DNA of 64,000 nucleotides from contig JAHBUZ010000001.1 of NCBI GenBank assembly GCA_019637815.1, positions 151,865-215,864 on the forward strand, given 5' to 3'. This document shows, piece by piece, positions 56,064-64,000 of the stretch. Origin of the DNA: Chloroflexota bacterium (lineage in GTDB: Bacteria; Chloroflexota; Limnocylindria; Limnocylindrales; CSP1-4). Position 1 is the first letter of the stretch, and the number at the start of each line of letters is the position of its first letter. The translations under genes were made by a program, and so were the position numbers. The notes under the pieces were generated by a model. It saw nothing but the letters and a program-made list of their open reading frames with translations, was not told the origin of the DNA and did no database searches.

Positions 56064-56492
56064 TCAGCCCTCGGTCGTCGGTGCTCCCGCTGGATCGAGG
56101 TGGACGCTGTCGCCCACGGCGACACCGGCGCGAGCGCACGTGCCCGCCGGCAGCTCGACCACCGCGGCCGCACCCCGCACATACCACACGACACCCGTCC
56201 AGGGCCGCAGGTCCTGCCGGATCGCGACCACCCGCTGGTGGCCGGTGGCATCGGGTGCGCCCAGGAACAGGGCATCGATGGGGAAGCGCATGAACAGCAT
56301 GTGGATGCTGTTCGTGGCGAGCACGAGGCCCTCGTCCGGTGCGAGACCGGGGTGGCCCATGAGCCCCCGGAAGCGGCCCCAGAAGCCCGCCGCGGATCGC
56401 ACGCGGTCGGCGATCGGGGCGCCGACTGCGGTCCGCAGCGTGAACATCGTGCCGGCCATGGCGCGATCGGCCACGAGGCGGCTCGTCGTCAC
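56064..56492 (-). CDS. DUF192 (UPF0127) protein
   Basis: RFRGLMG, SIHMLFMRFPIDALFL, VVELPAG. GTGA overlap with tadC. Confidence 0.85.
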   Translation of the reverse strand: MTTSRLVADRAMAGTMFTLRTAVGAPIADRVRSAAGFWGRFRGLMGHPGLAPDEGLVLATNSIHMLFMRFPIDALFLGAPDATGHQRVVAIRQDLRPWTGVVWYVRGAAAVVELPAGTCARAGVAVGDSVHLDPAGAPTTEG

Positions 56493-57415
56493 GTGCGTCC
56501 GCCGAGCTGGATCATGATGTTGATGATCGCCGGGCCCAGGATGACGATGAAGATCGACGGGAAGATGCAGCCCACGAGCGGGAACAGCATCTTGATGGGC
56601 GCCTTGGCGGCCATCTCCTCGGCTCGCTGGCGACGCTCGATGCGCAGCTGCTCCGACTGGATCTGGAGCACCTTGCTGATGGACACACCCAGGGTCTCCG
56701 CCTGGATGACCGCGCCGATGAAGCTCGTGAGGGCCTGGACGTTGGTCCGGTTCACGATGTCCTTGAGCGCGTCCTTGCGGGCCTTGCCCACGCGGATCTC
56801 GGCGAGCGCTCGCTGGAACTCGTCGGGCAGCGGGCCCTGCATCTTCTCGGTGACCTTGCCCAGCGCCGCGTCGAAGCCAAGACCCGCGCGGACGGAGATG
56901 GTGAGCAGGTCGAGGGCATCGGGGATCTCCAGGAGGATGCGCTTCTGGCGTGCCCGGATGCGCCGGGTCAGCCAGTACTCGGGTGCGATGAAGCCGATGC
57001 CCGTGCCCGCGAGCGCGAGGAGCATGCCCATGCCGAGGTTGCGGCCGAGCACGCCCACCAGCAGGAACAGGATGCCTGCCACGACGCCCGCGACGACCAC
57101 CTTGAGCCCCAGGAAGTCGACGCTCCGCATCTGATACGGGTTGCCGGCCGTGGCGAGTCGTCGCTCGGTGCCCAGGACCTTCTTCGTGCCGGTGAGCTTG
57201 CGACCGACGCCGGAGAGCTTGAGGGCGATGGGCCGGACGGTGCGGTCGAAGAACGGCTGCTGGAGCTCCAGCTCCTCGAGCGTCTTGGCCTGCATCGCAC
57301 CCAGCTGGGTGAGACGCGCCTGGACCGGGTCGGCGCCCCGCTGCCAGACGAGCGAGAACACCACGAGCAGGACGCCGAGGCCGGCCACGGCGGCGAGGAT
57401 GATGGTCGGGTTCAT
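56489..57415 (-). CDS. tadC: Tad pilus assembly membrane protein TadC
   Basis: IPDALDLLTISVRAGLGFD, QAETLGVSI, RRQRAEEMAAKAPIKMLFPL. Confidence 0.9.
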   Translation of the reverse strand: MNPTIILAAVAGLGVLLVVFSLVWQRGADPVQARLTQLGAMQAKTLEELELQQPFFDRTVRPIALKLSGVGRKLTGTKKVLGTERRLATAGNPYQMRSVDFLGLKVVVAGVVAGILFLLVGVLGRNLGMGMLLALAGTGIGFIAPEYWLTRRIRARQKRILLEIPDALDLLTISVRAGLGFDAALGKVTEKMQGPLPDEFQRALAEIRVGKARKDALKDIVNRTNVQALTSFIGAVIQAETLGVSISKVLQIQSEQLRIERRQRAEEMAAKAPIKMLFPLVGCIFPSIFIVILGPAIINIMIQLGGRT

Positions 57416-57419
57416 GGCC

Positions 57420-58439
57420 TCAGACCTCGATGTTGACGATGCGCCGGATGAAGATGAAGCCGAGCCCCATCATCAGCGCGCCGAAGGCCATGACCACCAC
57501 GCCCAGTGGCAGGCCGAACGCCTCGGGCGGCTTCTCGAACATCGGGCCCACGAACTGGGGCGCGATCGCCGAGATGATGACGAACAGGAAGATGGGCAGG
57601 GCACCCACGACATAGCCCGACATGCGGCCCTGTGCCGTGAGCGTCTTGATCTCGCCCTTGATGCGCACCCGCTCACGGATGGTGAACGCGATGGAGTCGA
57701 GGATCTCCGCGAGGTTGCCGCCGACCTGGTGCTGGATGTTGATGGCCGTGGTCATCAGCTCCAGGTCATCGGAGCGGACGCGACGCACCATGTTGTTGAG
57801 CGCCTGGTCGAAGGGCAGGCCCAGGTTCACCTCGCGGATCACCCGGTTGAACTCCGTGGAGATGGGCGGCTGTGACTCGCGGACCACCAGCTCGATCGAC
57901 TGGAGGAACGACGCGCCCGCGCGCAGCGAGTTCGCGATGAGCGTGATGGTGTCGGCGAGCCGGGAGTTGAAGGCCTTGAGTCGCTGGCTCTTGCGCCGGT
58001 TCAGCCAGAACCGGGGGAGCCACCAGCCGACGACGCCCGCGAGGAGATAGGCGAATGGGTTGCCGACCGTCGGCAGGACCGTCGCCCCCAGCAGGACCAC
58101 CGCGGCGGGCAGACCCACGATGCAGCCGGCCCGGATGGCCAGGAACTCGGAGGGCTTGAGCGCGAGGTCCGCGCGCGCGAGCTCGCGGGCGAGGTTGGCG
58201 CCCCAGTCCCGCTTCTCGACGACCTTGTTGAGGTCCGTAAGGGCGCGCGACGAGGCGAGCTGCTCGAGCAGCGTCTGCTGCTCCTGGCGCTTCTCCTCGC
58301 TCTTCTCGCCGCTCGCGCCAGCTGCGTAGCGCTCGAGGCGATCCTGGACGTCGTCCCGTCGTGTGCCGAAGAGACCCCAGAAGACGAGCAGGACGGCTGC
58401 CGCGGCGATGGCCGCCGCGACGAGCATCGTGGGGCTCAT
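57420..58439 (-). CDS. tadB: Tad pilus assembly membrane protein TadB
   Basis: NSLRAGASF, QVGGNLAEIL, TLTAQGRMS. Confidence 0.9.
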   Translation of the reverse strand: MSPTMLVAAAIAAAAVLLVFWGLFGTRRDDVQDRLERYAAGASGEKSEEKRQEQQTLLEQLASSRALTDLNKVVEKRDWGANLARELARADLALKPSEFLAIRAGCIVGLPAAVVLLGATVLPTVGNPFAYLLAGVVGWWLPRFWLNRRKSQRLKAFNSRLADTITLIANSLRAGASFLQSIELVVRESQPPISTEFNRVIREVNLGLPFDQALNNMVRRVRSDDLELMTTAINIQHQVGGNLAEILDSIAFTIRERVRIKGEIKTLTAQGRMSGYVVGALPIFLFVIISAIAPQFVGPMFEKPPEAFGLPLGVVVMAFGALMMGLGFIFIRRIVNIEV

Positions 58440-58451
58440 GGTCGGCTGCTC

Positions 58452-59867
58452 CTAGTAGCGGAAGCCGAACAGGCCGGGCGGCAACGCGATGCCCATCTGC
58501 TCGAACTTCTCGGCGAACTTGGGCCGGATGCCGGTCGGCTTCAGGCGGCCCTGGATCTTGCCGTCCGTGACGCCGGTCTGCTCGAACACGAACACGTCCT
58601 GCATCACGATGACATCACCCTCCATGCCCTGGACCTCGGTGATGTTGACGATCTTGCGGCTGCCGTCCTTGAGACGGCTCTGCTGCACGATGAGGTCCAC
58701 GGCGGAGGCGACCTGCTCCCGGATCGCCCGGAGCGGCAGGTCGACACCGGCCATGAGGACCATGGTCTCGAGTCGCGAGAGCATGTCGCGCGGGCTGTTG
58801 GCATGGCCCGTGGACATCGAGCCATCGTGGCCCGTGTTCATGGCCTGGAGCATGTCGAGCGCCTCGCCGCCACGACACTCGCCGACGATGATGCGGTCGG
58901 GCCGCATGCGCAGCGAGTTGCGGACGAGCTCCCGGATGGGGACCGCGCCCTTGCCCTCGATGTTCGAGGGTCGGGACTCGAGCGTGATGACGTGCTCCTG
59001 GCGGAGCTGGAGCTCGGCCGCGTCCTCGATGGTCACGATGCGCTCATCGCTCGGGATGAACGATGAGAGCACGTTGAGCGAGGTGGTCTTGCCCGAGCCG
59101 GTGCCGCCGGACACGAACACGTTGAGCCGTGCCTCGACGCACGCCTTGAGGAAGTCGAACATCTCCGGCGTGGCGGTGCCGAACCGGACGAGGTCATCCA
59201 CCGTGTACGGCGTGGCCGAGAACTTCCGGACCGTGATGACCGGGCCCACCAGCGAGAGCGGCGGGATGATGGCGTTCACGCGGGAGCCATCGGTGAGTCG
59301 TGCGTCCACCATCGGGCTGGACTCGTCGATGCGCCGGCCGATGGGGGCGATGATGCGATCGATGATGCGCAGCACATGGTCATCGTTCTGGAACGTGACG
59401 TTGGTCAGCTCCAGCTTGCCGCTGCGCTCGATGTAGACCTGGCGCGGGCCGTTGACCATCACCTCGGTGACGGACTCGTCACGCAGGAGCGGCTCCATGG
59501 GCCCGAGGCCCACGATCTCGTCGGTGATCTGCTCCAGCATCCGGACGCGCTCCGCCCGGGTGAGGGCGAGTGCCTCCTCCTCGAGCGCACGGCCGAAGAT
59601 CTCCTCGATCTGACGCCGCACCTCGATCTGGTTGGACAGGTCGAGCTTGGGGTCCAGGTCCTGGATGACCCGCTGCTGGATCCGGAACTTGGTGTCCCGG
59701 AACGATTCCCGGGCGGGCACCTGGGACAGCATCCGGGAGGGTGCCGGCACCGGCACCGAGCCGCCAGGACCTGCGGGAGGCTGGCCGGGTGCGCCCGGAG
59801 CGGGTGGGGTGGGGAGCACGCCGTCAGCGCCCGGACGAGCGCTTTCGATGCGCCTCAACAGGGACAT
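58452..59867 (-). CDS. cpaF: Tad pilus assembly ATPase CpaF/TadA
   Basis: GGTGSGKTT, TIEDAAEL, LRMRPDRIIVGE, AMNTGHDG. Confidence 0.95.
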   Translation of the reverse strand: MSLLRRIESARPGADGVLPTPPAPGAPGQPPAGPGGSVPVPAPSRMLSQVPARESFRDTKFRIQQRVIQDLDPKLDLSNQIEVRRQIEEIFGRALEEEALALTRAERVRMLEQITDEIVGLGPMEPLLRDESVTEVMVNGPRQVYIERSGKLELTNVTFQNDDHVLRIIDRIIAPIGRRIDESSPMVDARLTDGSRVNAIIPPLSLVGPVITVRKFSATPYTVDDLVRFGTATPEMFDFLKACVEARLNVFVSGGTGSGKTTSLNVLSSFIPSDERIVTIEDAAELQLRQEHVITLESRPSNIEGKGAVPIRELVRNSLRMRPDRIIVGECRGGEALDMLQAMNTGHDGSMSTGHANSPRDMLSRLETMVLMAGVDLPLRAIREQVASAVDLIVQQSRLKDGSRKIVNITEVQGMEGDVIVMQDVFVFEQTGVTDGKIQGRLKPTGIRPKFAEKFEQMGIALPPGLFGFRY

Positions 59868-59912
59868 CGGTTCAACTCCCTCGTGTGGTGGGGCGGTGGC
59901 GGGTGGTCATCG

Positions 59913-61160
59913 TCAGCGCCATGCGAACAGCTTCCGCTGGGCCGGGGCCTTGTCGGGTGGGGCGACCACCGCGGCGTCCCCGGCCACCGCGCGGGCGAGC
60001 GCCAGGACGTCCTGGCTCACTTGTGTCTGCTTGTTGCTCCACACGAACGGGACACCCCGGTTGAGGGCGTACACGACGGTGCGGCCGTCCGACACGACCG
60101 TGTGGTCGACCTTGCGGCCGATGGAGTTCTCGACATCGGCCACCCGGATGCCATACGCGGAGTCCGCGCGGTTGAGCACCAGGCGCACCTTGTCGGCCCC
60201 GTAGCCGAGCTGGTCGGCCACCTCGAGGAACAGGCGGATGTTCTTGATGTTGGTGATCTCCAGGGTCAGCAGACCCAGCACCTGGTCGGACAGGTCGAGC
60301 AGGGCGAGGGTCGCGTCCTGGAACACCGGCGCGGTATCCACGATGACCACGTCATGCGTGGCACGCAGCCGCTCGACGATGCGCCGGATGTGGTCGGTCG
60401 TGACCAGCTCGGCCATCTCGGGGCTGGGCGGCGCCAGCAGCACCTTGATGCCCGTGCTGTGGCTGATGAGCGCGTTGTCGACGATCGCGTCGCCCTCGCC
60501 ACCCGCCAGGTCACCGAGCACGTCCACCACGGACTTGTTCTTGGGGTTGAGGTTGAGCAGCACGCCCACGTCGCCGAACTGGAAGCTCGCATCGACGAGC
60601 GCCACCGATCGGCCCTGGTCGGCGGCCATGGCCACCGCGAGGTTGACCGCGAGCGTCGTCCGGCCGACACCGCCCTTGGGCGAGAACAGGGTGATGACCC
60701 TGCCGTCCTCCCTGGGCGTGGTCACGGTCAGCGCCGAGGTCGCGGCGGCGGGCTGTGCGCTGACCATCCGGCCCTGCTTCTCACGCTCCCGCGTGTAGAC
60801 CCCCCGGATGGCGGCGCAGAGCTCGTCCGCGCTGAAGGGCTTGACCAGGAACTCCCGGGCGCCCGCCAGCATCGACCGGCGCAGGTAGTCCGGCTCGCCC
60901 TGGACGCTCATCATCACGACGGCGGCGGTCGGGACGGTCCGCCCCAGCTCCTCGGTGGTCGCGATGCCGTCCATGCCGGGCATGTTGATGTCCATGAGGA
61001 CCACGTCCGGGGTGAGCCGGGTGGCGATCTCGATCGCCTCCTGGCCAGAGGCCGCGACACCCGCGACCTCGATGTCGGTCTCGAACGACAGGAGCTTGGC
61101 GAGGTGTTCCCGTGTCTCGAGGATGTCGTCGACCACGACGACCCTGATGGTGTCAGCCAC
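59913..61160 (-). CDS. cpaE: CpaE/TadZ-like protein: REC domain + MinD/ParA-like ATPase
   Basis: VVDD, LMDINMPGMDG and FLVKP (REC); SPKGGVGRTT Walker A variant. Confidence 0.88.
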   Translation of the reverse strand: MADTIRVVVVDDILETREHLAKLLSFETDIEVAGVAASGQEAIEIATRLTPDVVLMDINMPGMDGIATTEELGRTVPTAAVVMMSVQGEPDYLRRSMLAGAREFLVKPFSADELCAAIRGVYTREREKQGRMVSAQPAAATSALTVTTPREDGRVITLFSPKGGVGRTTLAVNLAVAMAADQGRSVALVDASFQFGDVGVLLNLNPKNKSVVDVLGDLAGGEGDAIVDNALISHSTGIKVLLAPPSPEMAELVTTDHIRRIVERLRATHDVVIVDTAPVFQDATLALLDLSDQVLGLLTLEITNIKNIRLFLEVADQLGYGADKVRLVLNRADSAYGIRVADVENSIGRKVDHTVVSDGRTVVYALNRGVPFVWSNKQTQVSQDVLALARAVAGDAAVVAPPDKAPAQRKLFAWR

Positions 61161-61202: not shown

Positions 61203-62051
61203 TCAGGGCAGGCGGGTGATGATCACGCGCGGCGGCAGCACGCCCCAGCGGTCGGTCAGCTCACGCAGGGTGATGCCGGTCGTGGGCACGTCCGGTGCCG
61301 TCTCGTCCTCGGGGGACCGCAGCAGCAGGTACAGGTTGCCGTCCAGCTGCGCGAACCGGACCAGCTCGGCCTGCTGCGGCGTGACCGCGAGGAGCGCGAT
61401 GGCGCCGATCTCGTTGTCGCCGTTGGCCTGCTGCTCGGTGACCACGGTGGGCAGGATGGTGCCCAGCACCTGGACGTTCTGGACCAGGACCTTGATGGTC
61501 GTGTTGTTCAGCCACTCGTCGAGGATCTTGGTGGCGGGCAGGCCGCTCTGGTCGCGGAACTCCGCGACGACGGGCGCCTTGTTCGGGTCCGGCTGATCGG
61601 TGATGGCGAGCATCACGTCCACGTAGTCACCGGTCTGGATGAGCGAACCCACCCCGGACAGCGAGTCGACCCGGATGGCCATCGCGCGCAGACCGGGCTT
61701 GAGCCCGCGGGTCACGTCGAGGGCGTTGGCATTGCCGCTCTGGAAGTCCGCAGCGGTGAGCACCTGACCCGCGGTCACGGTGCGTCGGATCACCTGGTTG
61801 GTGAGCACGGCCGGGTCGCGGAAGGTGTCGAGCGCCTCGTTGGCAGGCAGCTCCCGCGTGGCCAGGTCGGTCGGCGCCAGGCGCGTGCCAAGGGCGAGGT
61901 CGGTCGCGGCGGTCACGACGGTGACGACCTGGGGTGGTGCCTCGGGGCCGGACGGACCGCCGGGCCGGGAACCGAACATCAGGACGCCGCCGAAGGCCAC
62001 CACGGCCAGCAGCACGCCCAGCAGGAGCATCAGGCGATTCGAGCGCTTCAC
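61203..62051 (-). CDS. cpaB: Flp pilus assembly protein CpaB (SAF + RcpC)
   Basis: N-terminal TM, SAF domain, GLRAMAI, GDYVDV, NVQVL, VTPQQAE. TAGAGT -10 upstream. Confidence 0.9.
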   Translation of the reverse strand: MKRSNRLMLLLGVLLAVVAFGGVLMFGSRPGGPSGPEAPPQVVTVVTAATDLALGTRLAPTDLATRELPANEALDTFRDPAVLTNQVIRRTVTAGQVLTAADFQSGNANALDVTRGLKPGLRAMAIRVDSLSGVGSLIQTGDYVDVMLAITDQPDPNKAPVVAEFRDQSGLPATKILDEWLNNTTIKVLVQNVQVLGTILPTVVTEQQANGDNEIGAIALLAVTPQQAELVRFAQLDGNLYLLLRSPEDETAPDVPTTGITLRELTDRWGVLPPRVIITRLP

Positions 62052-62192
62052 GGATGGTCTCCACAGATGCGGGGGGTGACAGGCGTCGCGACTCTAGAAA
62101 AGGGAGTGGCAGTCGGACGAGATGACGAAAGGGCTATGACTGGTAGGACGGTGTGGATGGGTCAGGACCGCTGGGATGCGTGATGACCCGGT

Positions 62193-62216
62193 GGGGTGGG
62201 GGTGGGAGCGGGTGGG
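62193..62216 (+). other. G-quadruplex-forming motif
   Basis: GGGG-T-GGGGG-T-GGG-AGC-GGG-T-GGG: five G-tracts with 1-3 nt loops, intergenic, 16 nt from the flp repeat. Confidence 0.6.
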
Positions 62217-62232
62217 ATGTCCGGGAGATGGA

Positions 62233-62314
62233 GAAGGGCGGTGCTCCCGGGGGAACACCGCCCTTCGAAGGTTCCGAAGGAACGACGGTCAGATGGACTC
62301 GCCGACCTCGCTCA
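62233..62314. repeat. 82-bp identical direct repeat, copy 1 (flp 3' end + hairpins)
   Basis: Identical to 62630-62711; contains an 11-bp stem GAAGGGCGGTG / CACCGCCCTTC. Confidence 0.95.
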
Positions 62315-62462
62315 TGATCGTGTTGACCTGCGAGCCGAGGAAGATCACGGCGCCGATCACGACGATCGCGATGAGAGCCAGGATGAGTGCGTACTCGGCC
62401 AGACCCTGCCCCTCCTCGTCGCGGCGGACAGCGGTCTGCAGCCAGGTGATGAGAGCTGCCAT
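62289..62462 (-). CDS. flp: Flp/Fap pilin 1 (57 aa)
   Basis: EEG|QGLAEYALIL cleavage/Flp motif. SD GAAAGGAGGT before ATG 62462. Confidence 0.93.
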   Translation of the reverse strand: MAALITWLQTAVRRDEEGQGLAEYALILALIAIVVIGAVIFLGSQVNTIMSEVGESI

Positions 62463-62539
62463 GTCGTTGGGTACCTCCTTTCTCTCAAGATCCGTCCCGG
62501 AGGGCGGTGACCGCACTGTCGCTCGTCGCCGCCATGCCT

Positions 62540-62561
62540 CGATATGGGCCATCGGTACCAG
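62540..62561 (-). promoter_or_regulatory. Shared upstream motif CTGGTACC-N5-CCCATATCG (copy upstream of flp1)
   Basis: Same pattern as 52024-52045. Confidence 0.5.
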
Positions 62562-62629
62562 CCGGGGGCGCCAGTAGGGTCCCCGCCGGACCTGGGGACG
62601 GACCGGGTGATCCGTGCCGCGGACAGCAC

Positions 62630-62711
62630 GAAGGGCGGTGCTCCCGGGGGAACACCGCCCTTCGAAGGTTCCGAAGGAACGACGGTCAGATGGACTCGCC
62701 GACCTCGCTCA
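62630..62711. repeat. 82-bp identical direct repeat, copy 2
   Basis: Identical to 62233-62314. Confidence 0.95.
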
Positions 62712-62862
62712 GCATCCCGTTCAGGGTCGTGCCGAAGAATGTCACTGCGCCGATCACGATGATCGCGATGAATGTGAGGATGAGTGCGTATTCGGCCAGT
62801 CCCTGTCCGTGCTGATCACGGGGGATGGTCGATGTGAACCAGGTGCGGAACGCTGCCAACAT
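62686..62862 (-). CDS. flp: Flp/Fap pilin 2 (58 aa; absent from ORF track)
   Basis: MLAAFRTWFTSTIPRDQHG|QGLAEYALILTFIAIIVIGAVTFFGTTLNGMLSEVGESI. SD GAAAGGAGGTGA. Confidence 0.93.
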   Translation of the reverse strand: MLAAFRTWFTSTIPRDQHGQGLAEYALILTFIAIIVIGAVTFFGTTLNGMLSEVGESI

Positions 62863-63072
62863 CGTAGGTCACCTCCTTTCCCGGACTCCATGGCCGGGGC
62901 GATGGCGACCCACACGAGCCCACCGGGGTCGATATGGGATCGGGACTGCTCCAGCGTGTCCGACGTCCCGCTGACACTGGGCCGCCGTCGCTCCGTGGCC
63001 TATGGGACGGATGTCATGGGGCCCGGGGCGAATCGGGGGATCCGCCGCACCATCGAGAGGGAGCAGCGACGT

Positions 63073-64000
63073 TCAGCTCGTGCTGACGCTCAGCTCCACG
63101 GTGGTGCCATCGGGGCTCACGGACAGCCCGACCGCCATGACCCGGGCGCGGTCACCGAGGTCCGCGAGGAGCTCGGCCGGCAGCGAGTGCGCCTCGCTCG
63201 TGACCTGGCGCTCCTGCTCCCGGGTCTGCTCCATCATCGCGCGCAGCGCTGGCGGCAGGTCCTCCGGGAGCCGACCCGATGGCGTCGGCGCCGAGCTGGG
63301 CCGTGGCTCGTGGAGCCAGGCCGACCGGATGGTCACACCCAGGCGTCGCTCCGACCAGTCCAGTCGCACCGCCACGCGTGAGGGCCGCAGCGCCAGGTAG
63401 CCGTTGATGGTGTCGTCCACGAGCCGGAACAGACCGCTCTCGGTCTCCTGTGGCAGGCGTCGCTCCGTGCCCTGGGAGTCGAGGTCGATCTCGACCCCGG
63501 CTCGTCGTCCCCGGTCGACCGCCGTGCGGCGCAGCGTGGGCACGAGGCCCAGGTCGTCGAGCACCATGGGCCGGACGTCGAAGATGAACTCCTTGGTCGC
63601 GTCGAGCGCGTGCTCGACCATGACCCGCAGCTGGTCCAGCTCACCCTGCGTGCGAGCGTCACCCCGGCTCGCGAGCCGCAGCACGATCTCCGCCTGGAGC
63701 GCGATGTTGGCGAGGCTCTGGGCAGGCCCGTCGTGCATCTGTCGGGCGATCTCGCGACGCAGCTCCTCCTGGGCCCGTAGCAGCACGCTGGGATCGGTCG
63801 CATCACCGACGGGTGCGGTCGCCCGGAGGGCGAGCGCCTGGCTGAACGCGGAGGCTCCGGTCGTGCCGGCCGCCGCGATGCCCGAGGCACGCACCGATCG
63901 GAGGTCCTCCTCGACCCGTGCCATGCGGTCACGGAAGCGCGTCAGCGTCCGTTGCTTCCCCTCGAGGAGCTGCTGCTGCGCCTCGAACAGCGCGGCCCGC
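63073..64000 (-). CDS. DegS-like (HisKA_3) histidine kinase, 5' part outside the window; ATP-binding domain looks degenerate
   Basis: EIARQMHDGPAQSLANI H-box and LRPxxLDDLGL-like RPMVLDDLGLVPTL. No recognisable G1 (DxGxG) or G2 box. Confidence 0.8.
   Translation of the reverse strand, partial: RAALFEAQQQLLEGKQRTLTRFRDRMARVEEDLRSVRASGIAAAGTTGASAFSQALALRATAPVGDATDPSVLLRAQEELRREIARQMHDGPAQSLANIALQAEIVLRLASRGDARTQGELDQLRVMVEHALDATKEFIFDVRPMVLDDLGLVPTLRRTAVDRGRRAGVEIDLDSQGTERRLPQETESGLFRLVDDTINGYLALRPSRVAVRLDWSERRLGVTIRSAWLHEPRPSSAPTPSGRLPEDLPPALRAMMEQTREQERQVTSEAHSLPAELLADLGDRARVMAVGLSVSPDGTTVELSVSTS

Follow-up and report, generated by a model that had tools for sequence, protein, structure and literature searches.

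Comparison with orthologous loci supports the interpretation of an 82-bp identity between two tandem Flp pilin genes as a short gene-conversion patch, by which the 3' end of flp1 was copied onto flp2 after the split from the sister species. A single recent, short and non-reciprocal recombination event accounts for the identity. As a whole, the locus is very probably an ordinary Tad operon with a one-off flp1-to-flp2 3' patch and an incidental G-quadruplex (G4)-capable motif, and with no programmed recombination device. It is chiefly of value as a clear negative example: a strong G4 motif beside a pilin gene, combined with a shared 3' block, mimics Neisseria-type antigenic variation, and the look-alike here comes down to ordinary concerted evolution of tandem paralogues plus a compositional by-product.

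The genome is a MAG of an uncultured soil Chloroflexota bacterium (Candidatus Limnocylindrales; 61 contigs, 4.07 Mb, 71% GC, 87% complete), and the window referred to below is the whole 64,000-nt stretch of DNA that was analysed. An ordinary Tad (type IVc) pilus operon on the minus strand starts at this locus; it begins with two Flp pilin genes, flp2 upstream and flp1 downstream, which are followed by the genes for RcpC/CpaB, TadZ/CpaE, TadA/CpaF, TadB and TadC (Table 1). Both pilins score above the PF04964 (Flp/Fap pilin) gathering cut-off of 32.2 bits and, as read from the sequence, include the prepilin-processing motif G/XXXXEY with a hydrophobic helix after it (G-QGLA-EY-ALIL...). A dedicated prepilin peptidase (TadV/CpaA) was not seen within 49.9-64 kb of the window. 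Besides the two strong Flp genes, the genome includes one intact, distant third copy. A strong Shine-Dalgarno sequence, AAAGGAGG, lies 7-8 nt 5' of each flp ATG, and the CCCATATCGA motif occurs only twice in the window, where 0.07 occurrences are expected by chance. A scan of 61900-63200, which covered sigma-70 consensus sites only, found no promoter-like sites. The genes flp1 and flp2 are two old paralogues. Each forms a self-contained cassette, in which the conserved CCCATATCGA element lies upstream, a strong Shine-Dalgarno sequence precedes ~58 codons, and a strong GC hairpin follows them.

Table 1. Features at and around the flp genes (positions are those of the window)
Feature	Position	Strand	Basis or remarks
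flp2, upstream Flp pilin, 58 aa, MLAAFRTWFTSTIPRDQHG/QGLAEY...SEVGESI; patch recipient	62686..62862	-	ORF; PF04964 33.4 bits
flp1, downstream Flp pilin, 57 aa; patch donor	62289..62462	-	ORF; PF04964 32.7 bits
CCCATATCGA motif, promoter/operator candidate, 77-86 nt 5' of flp1 ATG	62539..62548	-	conserved in orthologues
CCCATATCGA motif, second copy, 67-76 nt 5' of flp2 ATG	62929..62938	-	
Identity block copy 1, native flp1 3' end (last 8 codons, stop, small and large hairpins)	62233..62314	-	93% to G019 flp1 3' end
Identity block copy 2, conversion patch over ancestral flp2 3' end (SDVGQSV and CCGGCGTC-type hairpin)	62630..62711	-	orthologue comparison; junction in four Logan assemblies
Terminator-like GC hairpin 3' of flp1 (15-bp stem, CCGG loop, -31 kcal/mol), then pyrimidine-rich tail	62233..62266	-	
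Same flp1-type hairpin, copied 3' of flp2	62630..62663	-	
Small hairpin GTTCC-TTC-GGAAC in block	62271..62283 (copy 2: 62668-62680)	-	
Five-tract G4-capable motif GGGGTGGGGGTGGGAGCGGGTGGG, C-rich on mRNA strand	62193..62216	+	partly conserved in G019 only
flp1-to-cpaB spacer, candidate rut-like/leader region	62052..62232	-	86 C and 29 G in 181 nt
Conserved non-coding element CCACACCGTCCTACCAGTCATAGCCCTTTCGTCATCTCGTCCGAC 5' of cpaB, then -10-like TAGAGT at 62091-62096	62112..62156	-	near-invariant in orthologous loci, at least 8 species
RcpC/CpaB, first assembly gene 3' of pilin genes	61203..62051	-	PF16976 1.6e-17 and SAF domain
Rest of Tad machinery	56489..61160	-	ORFs and domain matches
REC-TadZ/CpaE	61160..59913	-	
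CpaF/TadA ATPase	59867..58452	-	
TadB	58439..57420	-	
TadC	57415..56489	-	

Over their 82 nt the two copies of the block (62233-62314 and 62630-62711) match without a single difference; 26 nt are coding sequence, including the stop codon, and 56 nt are 3' non-coding. Identity is 86% over the whole 196-nt repeat, and at a background identity of ~76% the chance of 82 consecutive matches is ~1e-10. The GQGLAEY stretch differs between the copies at synonymous sites (GGGCAGGGTCTGGCCGAGTAC versus GGACAGGGACTGGCCGAATAC). The statements made on the sequence in the preliminary description (paired flp genes, synonymous GQGLAEY differences, the 82-bp identity and a G4 motif at 16 nt) all hold, and its caveats that both genes look expressed, that there are only two copies and that G4 motifs are common in GC-rich DNA were right.

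On the 5' side of the block, the coding sequence of flp2 shares 86% identity with the flp2 orthologue in the related genome G019, as compared with 73% with the flp1 of its own genome. The 82-nt block of flp2 is 100% identical to its own flp1, 93% to G019 flp1 and only ~71% to the G019 flp2 orthologue, and flp1 itself is 89-92% identical to the flp1 orthologues of seven relatives. Two flp2 orthologues keep another C-terminus (SDVGQSV) and another hairpin; the second of these, protein P0002 of JGI contig L054 (84% identical), ends in SDVGQSV and is followed by the hairpin GATGCCGGCGTC...GACGCCGGCATC. The spacer on the 3' side of the patch can be aligned to its flp2-to-flp1 counterparts in G019 and L054. 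The tract is thus nearest to the paralogue in the same genome while its flanks are nearest to orthologues, and this phylogenetic incongruence identifies the block as a gene-conversion patch. As both flanks are native, a patch is indicated and not a single unequal crossover or deletion; derivation in that way from a G019-like three-gene array was ruled out by the post-patch spacer, which is of the flp2-to-flp1 type. A recent duplication of flp1 followed by fast divergence was likewise ruled out, given that G019 and L054 both have orthologues of the flp2 5' part.

In this event, ~75-82 nt of the flp1 3' end (8 codons, the stop codon, the small hairpin and the terminator hairpin) overwrote the flp2 counterpart, the patch being bounded by the microhomologies TGAGCGA and CCTTC and the flp2 flanks remaining native. 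Either RecA-mediated conversion or template switching during replication could be responsible, the microhomology at the 3' boundary being just 5 nt. Like other cases of gene conversion (concerted evolution) between tandem bacterial paralogues, the locus combines a short perfect tract amid diverged paralogues, an adjacent donor and recipient, and a tract phylogeny at odds with that of the flanks. It differs from them in that the tract is a 3' end with a terminator hairpin, and in that native flanks are demonstrated via two orthologues. It represents an unusually well-bounded natural conversion patch of ~80 nt, with a whole terminator hairpin moved between genes. The block had been described beforehand as either recently homogenised or under strict selection. 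The incongruent phylogeny bears out recent homogenisation, but strict selection is rejected on the basis of 20 further tandem flp pairs or arrays from the genus. Identical stretches between their paralogues reach at most 8-42 nt, and the hairpin of the upstream paralogue is as a rule a different one.

The large hairpins (15-16 bp stem, -31 to -33 kcal/mol, z-scores -5.4 and -4.2) most likely act as intrinsic terminators or 3' mRNA stabilisers. The flp1-type hairpin is kept in nine flp1 orthologues, with an AU<->UA compensatory pair, and every flp gene of the relatives has a strong hairpin of its own (-28 to -35 kcal/mol). The hairpin tails in this genome, UCUCCAUCUCCC and GUGCUGUCCG, are pyrimidine-rich rather than U-rich, and those of the orthologues are CUUUUUCCC, CUUCUUUCC and UUUUUUG. 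A simple terminator scan of 61900-63200 called neither flp hairpin, and the search of Rfam returned for the hairpin only sub-threshold chance matches to a sobemovirus frameshift element (22 bits, cut-off 55). The hairpins would make pilin transcripts abundant relative to those of the downstream assembly genes. The CCGG in the hairpin loop was also considered as a Neisseria-like R-M cleavage site (PMC13321361) and was dismissed, as CCGG is far too frequent at 71% GC.

The G4 motif has the layout GGGG-T-GGGGG-T-GGG-AGC-GGG-T-GGG and lies 16 nt from block copy 1, 3' of the donor gene flp1, and its G-rich strand serves as the template when the operon is transcribed. It is among only 13 motifs genome-wide (4.07 Mb) that have at least five tracts and loops of up to 3 nt; of canonical G4 motifs the genome has 591, a density of one per 6.9 kb. 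The motif appears to be a by-product of the spacer between the flp1 hairpin and the conserved cpaB promoter region, which is extremely C-rich and G-poor on the transcript strand. The excess of C over G in this spacer, 39 per 100 nt, ranks it within the top 0.012% of the genome when 100-nt windows are compared by C-G skew, and the spacers of relatives have C fractions of 0.42-0.47 and G fractions of 0.17-0.25. A canonical G4 turned up in 37-43% of dinucleotide-preserving shuffles of the spacer; the compact form with five tracts and short loops arose in just 2-3%, which counts against an incidental origin. Of 13 orthologous loci, 4 have a canonical G4 motif, at positions that are not homologous, and the motif itself is missing from most of these loci. 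Its conservation, proposed earlier as a check on a functional role, extends to the sister species only. The spacer is plausibly a Rho-utilisation or leader region, as judged from a C-rich, G-poor transcript of at least 80 nt and the presence of a Rho gene (Rho_RNA_bind, 104.6 bits), which make it a candidate rut site by sequence. For the conserved element CCACACCGTCCTACCAGTCATAGCCCTTTCGTCATCTCGTCCGAC, no family was found in Rfam.

The patch could in principle have been created by a chimeric or collapsed MAG assembly that grafted the flp1 tail onto flp2, as the MAG is in 61 contigs and 87% complete and repeats can mislead assemblers. However, four independent Logan (k=31) assemblies (SRR12908344, 47, 48 and 49) match the window over 927-1319 nt with 0 mismatches, and their contigs all stop at 62682. 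This position is 30 nt (k-1) inside the repeat, just where contigs should break if the repeat truly occurs in two contexts. Five contigs on record moreover encode exactly the 58-aa hybrid protein, and an artefact is scarcely credible. It is very unlikely that selection and not drift fixed the patch, through a factor favouring one tail on both mRNAs (an RNA-binding regulator, a processing enzyme or a requirement for SEVGESI). The flp1-type hairpin is indeed highly conserved between species, and it has been transferred to the upstream paralogue on at least two occasions, with different boundaries, in this genome (G000) and in the lineage of L056, L057 and G029. Nevertheless, most species retain a different hairpin on the upstream paralogue, and the identity spans the loop, the spacer and synonymous sites, which indicates recency rather than constraint. 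Since the replaced and replacing hairpins are similar in stability, the conversion event was probably near-neutral.

Identical tracts were also found in other flp arrays. Within the genus, a 376-bp unit is duplicated in G019, two flp1-type copies in G017 are identical over at least 180 nt, and in metagenome contig L056 a 3' block is identical over 75 nt, its boundaries differing from those in this genome. In the genus sample, a G4 motif accompanied all four arrays with tracts of at least 40 nt (G000, G019, L030 and L056) and 2 of the 19 arrays without them (naive Fisher p = 0.002), and G017, added by hand, is a fifth such case (5/5 versus 2/19). This co-occurrence, together with a five-tract form that is above compositional expectation (2-3% of shuffles), would fit a non-programmed G4 hotspot, at which stalled replication or transcription raises template switching or conversion between flp units. 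However, the association is post hoc, with 4 of the 5 cases coming from one clade, and in L057 and G029 both paralogues share the flp1-type hairpin although no G4 is present. In other genera, identical tracts of at least 40 nt were found in 26 of 32 independent flp arrays, and none of the 32 has a G4 motif. As all 26 of these footprint arrays lack one, a G4 is not needed for the footprints; the association in the genus is assigned to a clade effect, and a hotspot is quite unlikely. Conversion tracts are the rule in Flp arrays of the Limnocylindria (soil and freshwater Chloroflexota), and caution is advisable with pilin paralogue phylogenies and with assembly breaks at flp loci. That such patchy conversion among co-expressed flp paralogues across the Limnocylindria represents a selected reshuffling of pilin segments and 3' hairpins, giving mosaic pilins and co-ordinated termination and further stimulated in the G000/G019/G017 clade by a strong template-strand G4 of the C-rich spacer, is very unlikely. 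The preliminary description had proposed a recombination-driven pilin switch analogous to that of Neisseria. In programmed variation of this type the G4 would initiate frequent conversion that switches the pilin, and the shared 3' block would serve as a recombination anchor. Such a switch is suggested by a strong G4 motif close to the block, by conversion that demonstrably happened at this locus and by the co-occurrence of footprints and G4 in the genus sample. It is nonetheless highly improbable, as there are no silent donors, the patch lies outside the variable region, and the G4 is misplaced and not conserved. The 82-mer was found genome-wide only at its two known positions, with no further copies, and blastn detected no partial flp copy longer than 21 nt (87% complete genome); both flp genes are complete expression cassettes. 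The patch comprises the conserved C-terminus (last 8 codons) and the 3' UTR, and the variable middle of the pilin stays flp2-type. The 26 arrays with conversion tracts and no G4 in other genera, the lack of conservation of the motif beyond the sister species and the 0 mismatches in the four Logan assemblies, the contigs of which drop rare variants, also argue against a switch.

The likeness to Neisseria gonorrhoeae pilE/pilS (PMC3547852, PMC13463697, PMC13321361) extends to a pilin gene with a nearby G4-capable motif, to non-reciprocal transfer of pilin sequence and to a shared block 3' of the genes. Unlike pilE/pilS, the locus has no silent copies, the converted tract is in a conserved region and the motif is not conserved. 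The pilE G4 requires that the C-rich strand be transcribed from an sRNA promoter next to it (PMC3547852, Cahoon & Seifert 2013), whereas here the G4 is downstream of the donor and not upstream of the recipient, the template strand carries the G-rich sequence, and the scanned region yielded no promoter beside it. The pilin is also of the Flp (type IVc) and not the type IVa class.

The closer counterparts are flp-tad loci with several flp genes, such as those of Aggregatibacter actinomycetemcomitans (flp-1/flp-2) and Haemophilus ducreyi (flp1-3), in which tandem Flp prepilin genes likewise precede RcpC/CpaB, TadZ, TadA/CpaF and TadB/C. These loci likewise have stem-loops 3' of the pilins, which would yield more pilin transcript than machinery transcript. 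Transcription of flp-tad with tandem flp genes was reportedly described by Kram et al. in 2008 (J Bacteriol 190:3859) as a 'termination cascade'. The title of that paper is cited in PMC3767616 and PMC7494200. In contrast to the two known loci, termination at the hairpins is here deduced from sequence, and the host belongs to the monoderm-type Chloroflexota, with no secretin seen within the window. Further differences are that TadZ bears an N-terminal receiver domain and that a separate upstream element seems to precede each flp gene.

The two Flp pilin genes of the Tad (type IVc) pilus locus, upstream flp2 and downstream flp1, share a block with 100% identity across 82 nt. Outside it their coding regions are about 73-76% identical, with three synonymous differences in the codons for GQGLAEY. 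As judged by the probability of an 82-match run at ~76% background identity (~1e-10), the block is not due to chance. This agrees with the preliminary description, which had recorded the identity, the synonymous differences and a five-tract G4 motif 16 nt from block copy 1. Read in the transcript direction, the block comprises the final eight codons (…SEVGESI) and the stop codon, then a small hairpin GTTCC-TTC-GGAAC and a large GC hairpin (15-16-bp stem, CCGG loop, about -31 kcal/mol). Each gene is preceded by a strong SD sequence and, about 70-85 nt upstream, by the element CCCATATCGA, which may serve as a pilin promoter or as a regulator site; it is kept upstream of flp orthologues and has only two sites in the 64-kb window, both upstream of flp genes (0.07 expected). 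Thus, flp1 and flp2 are autonomous cassettes (candidate promoter-SD-CDS-hairpin) and, in line with the preliminary description, neither is silent. With its two pilin cassettes, the locus represents an ordinary Tad operon. The genome, G000, is a MAG of 4.07 Mb in 61 contigs (71% GC, 87% complete), and its CpaB-based relatives are Candidatus Limnocylindrales / Chloroflexota MAGs.

Features of the Tad locus and its surroundings (window positions)
Feature	Position	Strand	Context
HisKA_3 kinase-like gene	63073-63924		just upstream of pilin genes
CCCATATCGA	62929-62938	minus	upstream of flp2
flp2	62862..62686	minus	Tad locus at window 3' end
Block copy 2	62630-62711		flp2 3' end
CCCATATCGA	62539-62548	minus	upstream of flp1
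flp1	62462..62289	minus	same Tad locus as flp2
Block copy 1	62233-62314		flp1 3' end
Five-tract G4 motif GGGG-T-GGGGG-T-GGG-AGC-GGG-T-GGG	62193-62216	+	16 nt from block copy 1
CCACACCGTCCTACCAGTCATAGCCCTTTCGTCATCTCGTCCGAC (45 nt, non-coding)	62112-62156	minus	upstream of cpaB, at spacer end
-10-like TAGAGT	62091-62096	minus	with CCACACCGTCCTACCAGTCATAGCCCTTTCGTCATCTCGTCCGAC
RcpC/CpaB	62051..61203	minus	Tad locus, after flp2 and flp1
TadZ/CpaE with receiver domain	61160..59913	minus	Tad locus
CpaF/TadA	59867..58452	minus	Tad locus
TadB	58439..57420	minus	Tad locus
TadC	57415..56489	minus	Tad locus

In this genus, flp genes usually come as tandem pairs or triples, but the upstream paralogue generally carries a 3' end unlike that of its neighbour. 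Upstream of the block, flp2 is 86% identical to the upstream gene of G019, a sister species and the closest relative having both flp1 and flp2, as compared with 73% to its own flp1. The flp2 block, in contrast, is 100% identical to that of its own flp1, 93% identical to the G019 flp1 genes, and essentially unalignable with the G019 flp2 orthologue. A second flp2 orthologue, found by protein search (P0002, 84% identity, JGI contig L054), has the same SDVGQSV C-terminus as the G019 flp2 orthologue and a GATGCCGGCGTC…GACGCCGGCATC hairpin resembling that of G019. Following the block, the G000 spacer aligns with orthologous flp2-to-flp1 spacers. Hence, the flanks of the flp2 block are native and the block itself is derived from flp1. 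On these alignments, the flp2 block is a gene-conversion patch some 75-82 nt long, with TGAGCGA as its 5' boundary and CCTTC as its 3' boundary.

A simple recent duplication of the whole gene, an explanation that the preliminary description had left standing, is excluded by the orthology of the 5' part of flp2 to the G019 upstream gene. The native sequence on both sides of the block rules out derivation from a three-gene array by one unequal crossover. Assembly collapse had also been raised. However, the exact hybrid flp2 protein is on record from five contigs, and four Logan assemblies from separate runs are identical with the window across 927-1319 nt, all ending at 62682, exactly 30 nt (k-1, k=31) inside the repeat, the behaviour expected of a genuine repeat that has two left contexts. 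This makes a chimeric assembly very unlikely. Gene conversion occurred well after the species split, since the block shows no differences between the G000 paralogues, as compared with 7% between the G000 and G019 flp1 blocks. This short event, probably near-neutral, carried the putative terminator hairpin from the flp1 cassette to that of flp2. The incongruent block and native flanks bear out recent homogenisation, as proposed earlier, while the strict selection offered as its alternative is not supported, given the different 3' ends normally found on upstream paralogues.

A G4-driven pilin switch of the Neisseria type, also proposed earlier, is not supported. In Neisseria, many silent pilS copies act as donors to pilE, a G4 lies upstream of pilE, and the promoter adjoining the G4 must transcribe the C-rich strand, letting the G-rich strand fold (PMC3547852). 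The window locus differs in donors, converted region, place of the G4 and adjacent promoter. The G000 genome (87% complete) includes only the two copies of the 82-mer, and no partial flp copies longer than 21 nt were detected in it by blastn; the variable pilin middle lies outside the patch, which is confined to the conserved C-terminus and UTR; the G4 is on the operon template strand, 3' of the donor gene; and no promoter-like site was found near it by consensus scan. G000 has only two strong Flp genes, plus a third (G000:C1:258786-258908, …GQALAEFALILSLIVILSVVALLLMGDQISAILSTIAGQL), intact but divergent, which lies ~44 kb beyond the window end and outside the tad locus.

The window sequence is a strong G4 motif, being one of 13 in the genome with at least five tracts and loops of at most 3 nt (canonical motifs number 591, one per 6.9 kb). 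In the genus sample, a canonical G4 was present in 5/5 arrays with identical paralogue tracts of at least 40 nt (G000, G019, G017, L056 and L030) and in 2/19 others. In G019, the entire flp1 unit, from promoter element through SD and CDS to hairpin, is duplicated in tandem with perfect identity (376 bp), giving three flp genes (G019:C153, 1381-2110), G017 has at least 180 identical nt between paralogues, and the metagenome contig L056 has a 75-nt 3' block with boundaries unlike those of G000. Given that four of these five arrays belong to one clade, and that L057 and G029 have the flp1-type hairpin on both paralogues but no G4, 32 tandem arrays (L058-L089, 2-5 flp genes each) from further genera in the family and class were examined. 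Tracts of at least 40 nt were found in 26/32 and of at least 60 nt in 19/32 (longest 153 nt), mostly within the CDS and some across the stop codon, and a canonical G4 in 0/32. Though biased, as it comprises the best matches to flp1, this sample settles that a G4 is unnecessary for such tracts, and the association in the genus sample was rejected as a clade effect. In the class, it is thus common for tandem flp paralogues to share tracts left by conversion or duplication. Any local effect of the G4 on recombination at the window locus is highly improbable. In the first 250 nt of L057 (Ga0207683_10080968, operon orientation), the 5' part of the upstream flp paralogue, with the leader and GQGLAEY, is missing, and the truncated gene is joined to ~150 nt of unrelated DNA, lower in GC, at the end of the contig. 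An insertion, chimerism of the contig or a leaderless pilin remnant may account for this.

The preliminary description had looked to conservation of the G4 in orthologous loci. A canonical motif occurs in the flp1 hairpin-to-cpaB spacer of G000, G019, G017 and, at another position, L020, and is absent from G003, G015, G035, G031, G018, L024, L025 and L035. On the transcript strand, C (86) far outnumbers G (29) in the 181-nt spacer, and the 100-nt window with the strongest skew there (C minus G = 39) falls in the top 0.012% of the genome. Orthologous spacers are likewise C-rich and G-poor (C 0.42-0.47, G 0.17-0.25), with a variable C-tract pattern. When the spacer was shuffled with dinucleotides preserved, a canonical G4 motif arose in 37-43% of cases and the five-tract short-loop form in 2-3%. 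The conserved trait is thus the C-rich, G-poor transcript, which has the signature of a putative Rho-utilisation region; a Rho gene is present in G000. At the spacer end, CCACACCGTCCTACCAGTCATAGCCCTTTCGTCATCTCGTCCGAC is almost invariant in orthologous loci of at least 8 species, while the rest of the spacer is variable. It matched no Rfam family and, with TAGAGT, probably serves cpaB / the assembly-gene operon as operator, promoter or leader.

In same-genus relatives, a comparable hairpin (-28 to -35 kcal/mol) follows every flp gene with an examined 3' end, many with T-rich tails. Nine orthologues retain the flp1-type hairpin, including a compensatory AU<->UA change. Such hairpins would terminate or stabilise pilin transcripts. 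Transcription of the Aggregatibacter tad locus is reportedly described as a 'termination cascade' (study title cited in PMC3767616); the likeness lies in the hairpins behind pilin genes, with a presumed termination role here. As the tails in G000 are pyrimidine-rich, not U-rich, and neither flp hairpin was called by a simple terminator scan, we only infer a terminator role for them. The TadZ/CpaE ATPase has an N-terminal response-regulator receiver domain (PF00072, 3.9e-27), which, together with the adjacent HisKA_3 kinase-like gene, suggests that piliation may be under phosphorelay control.
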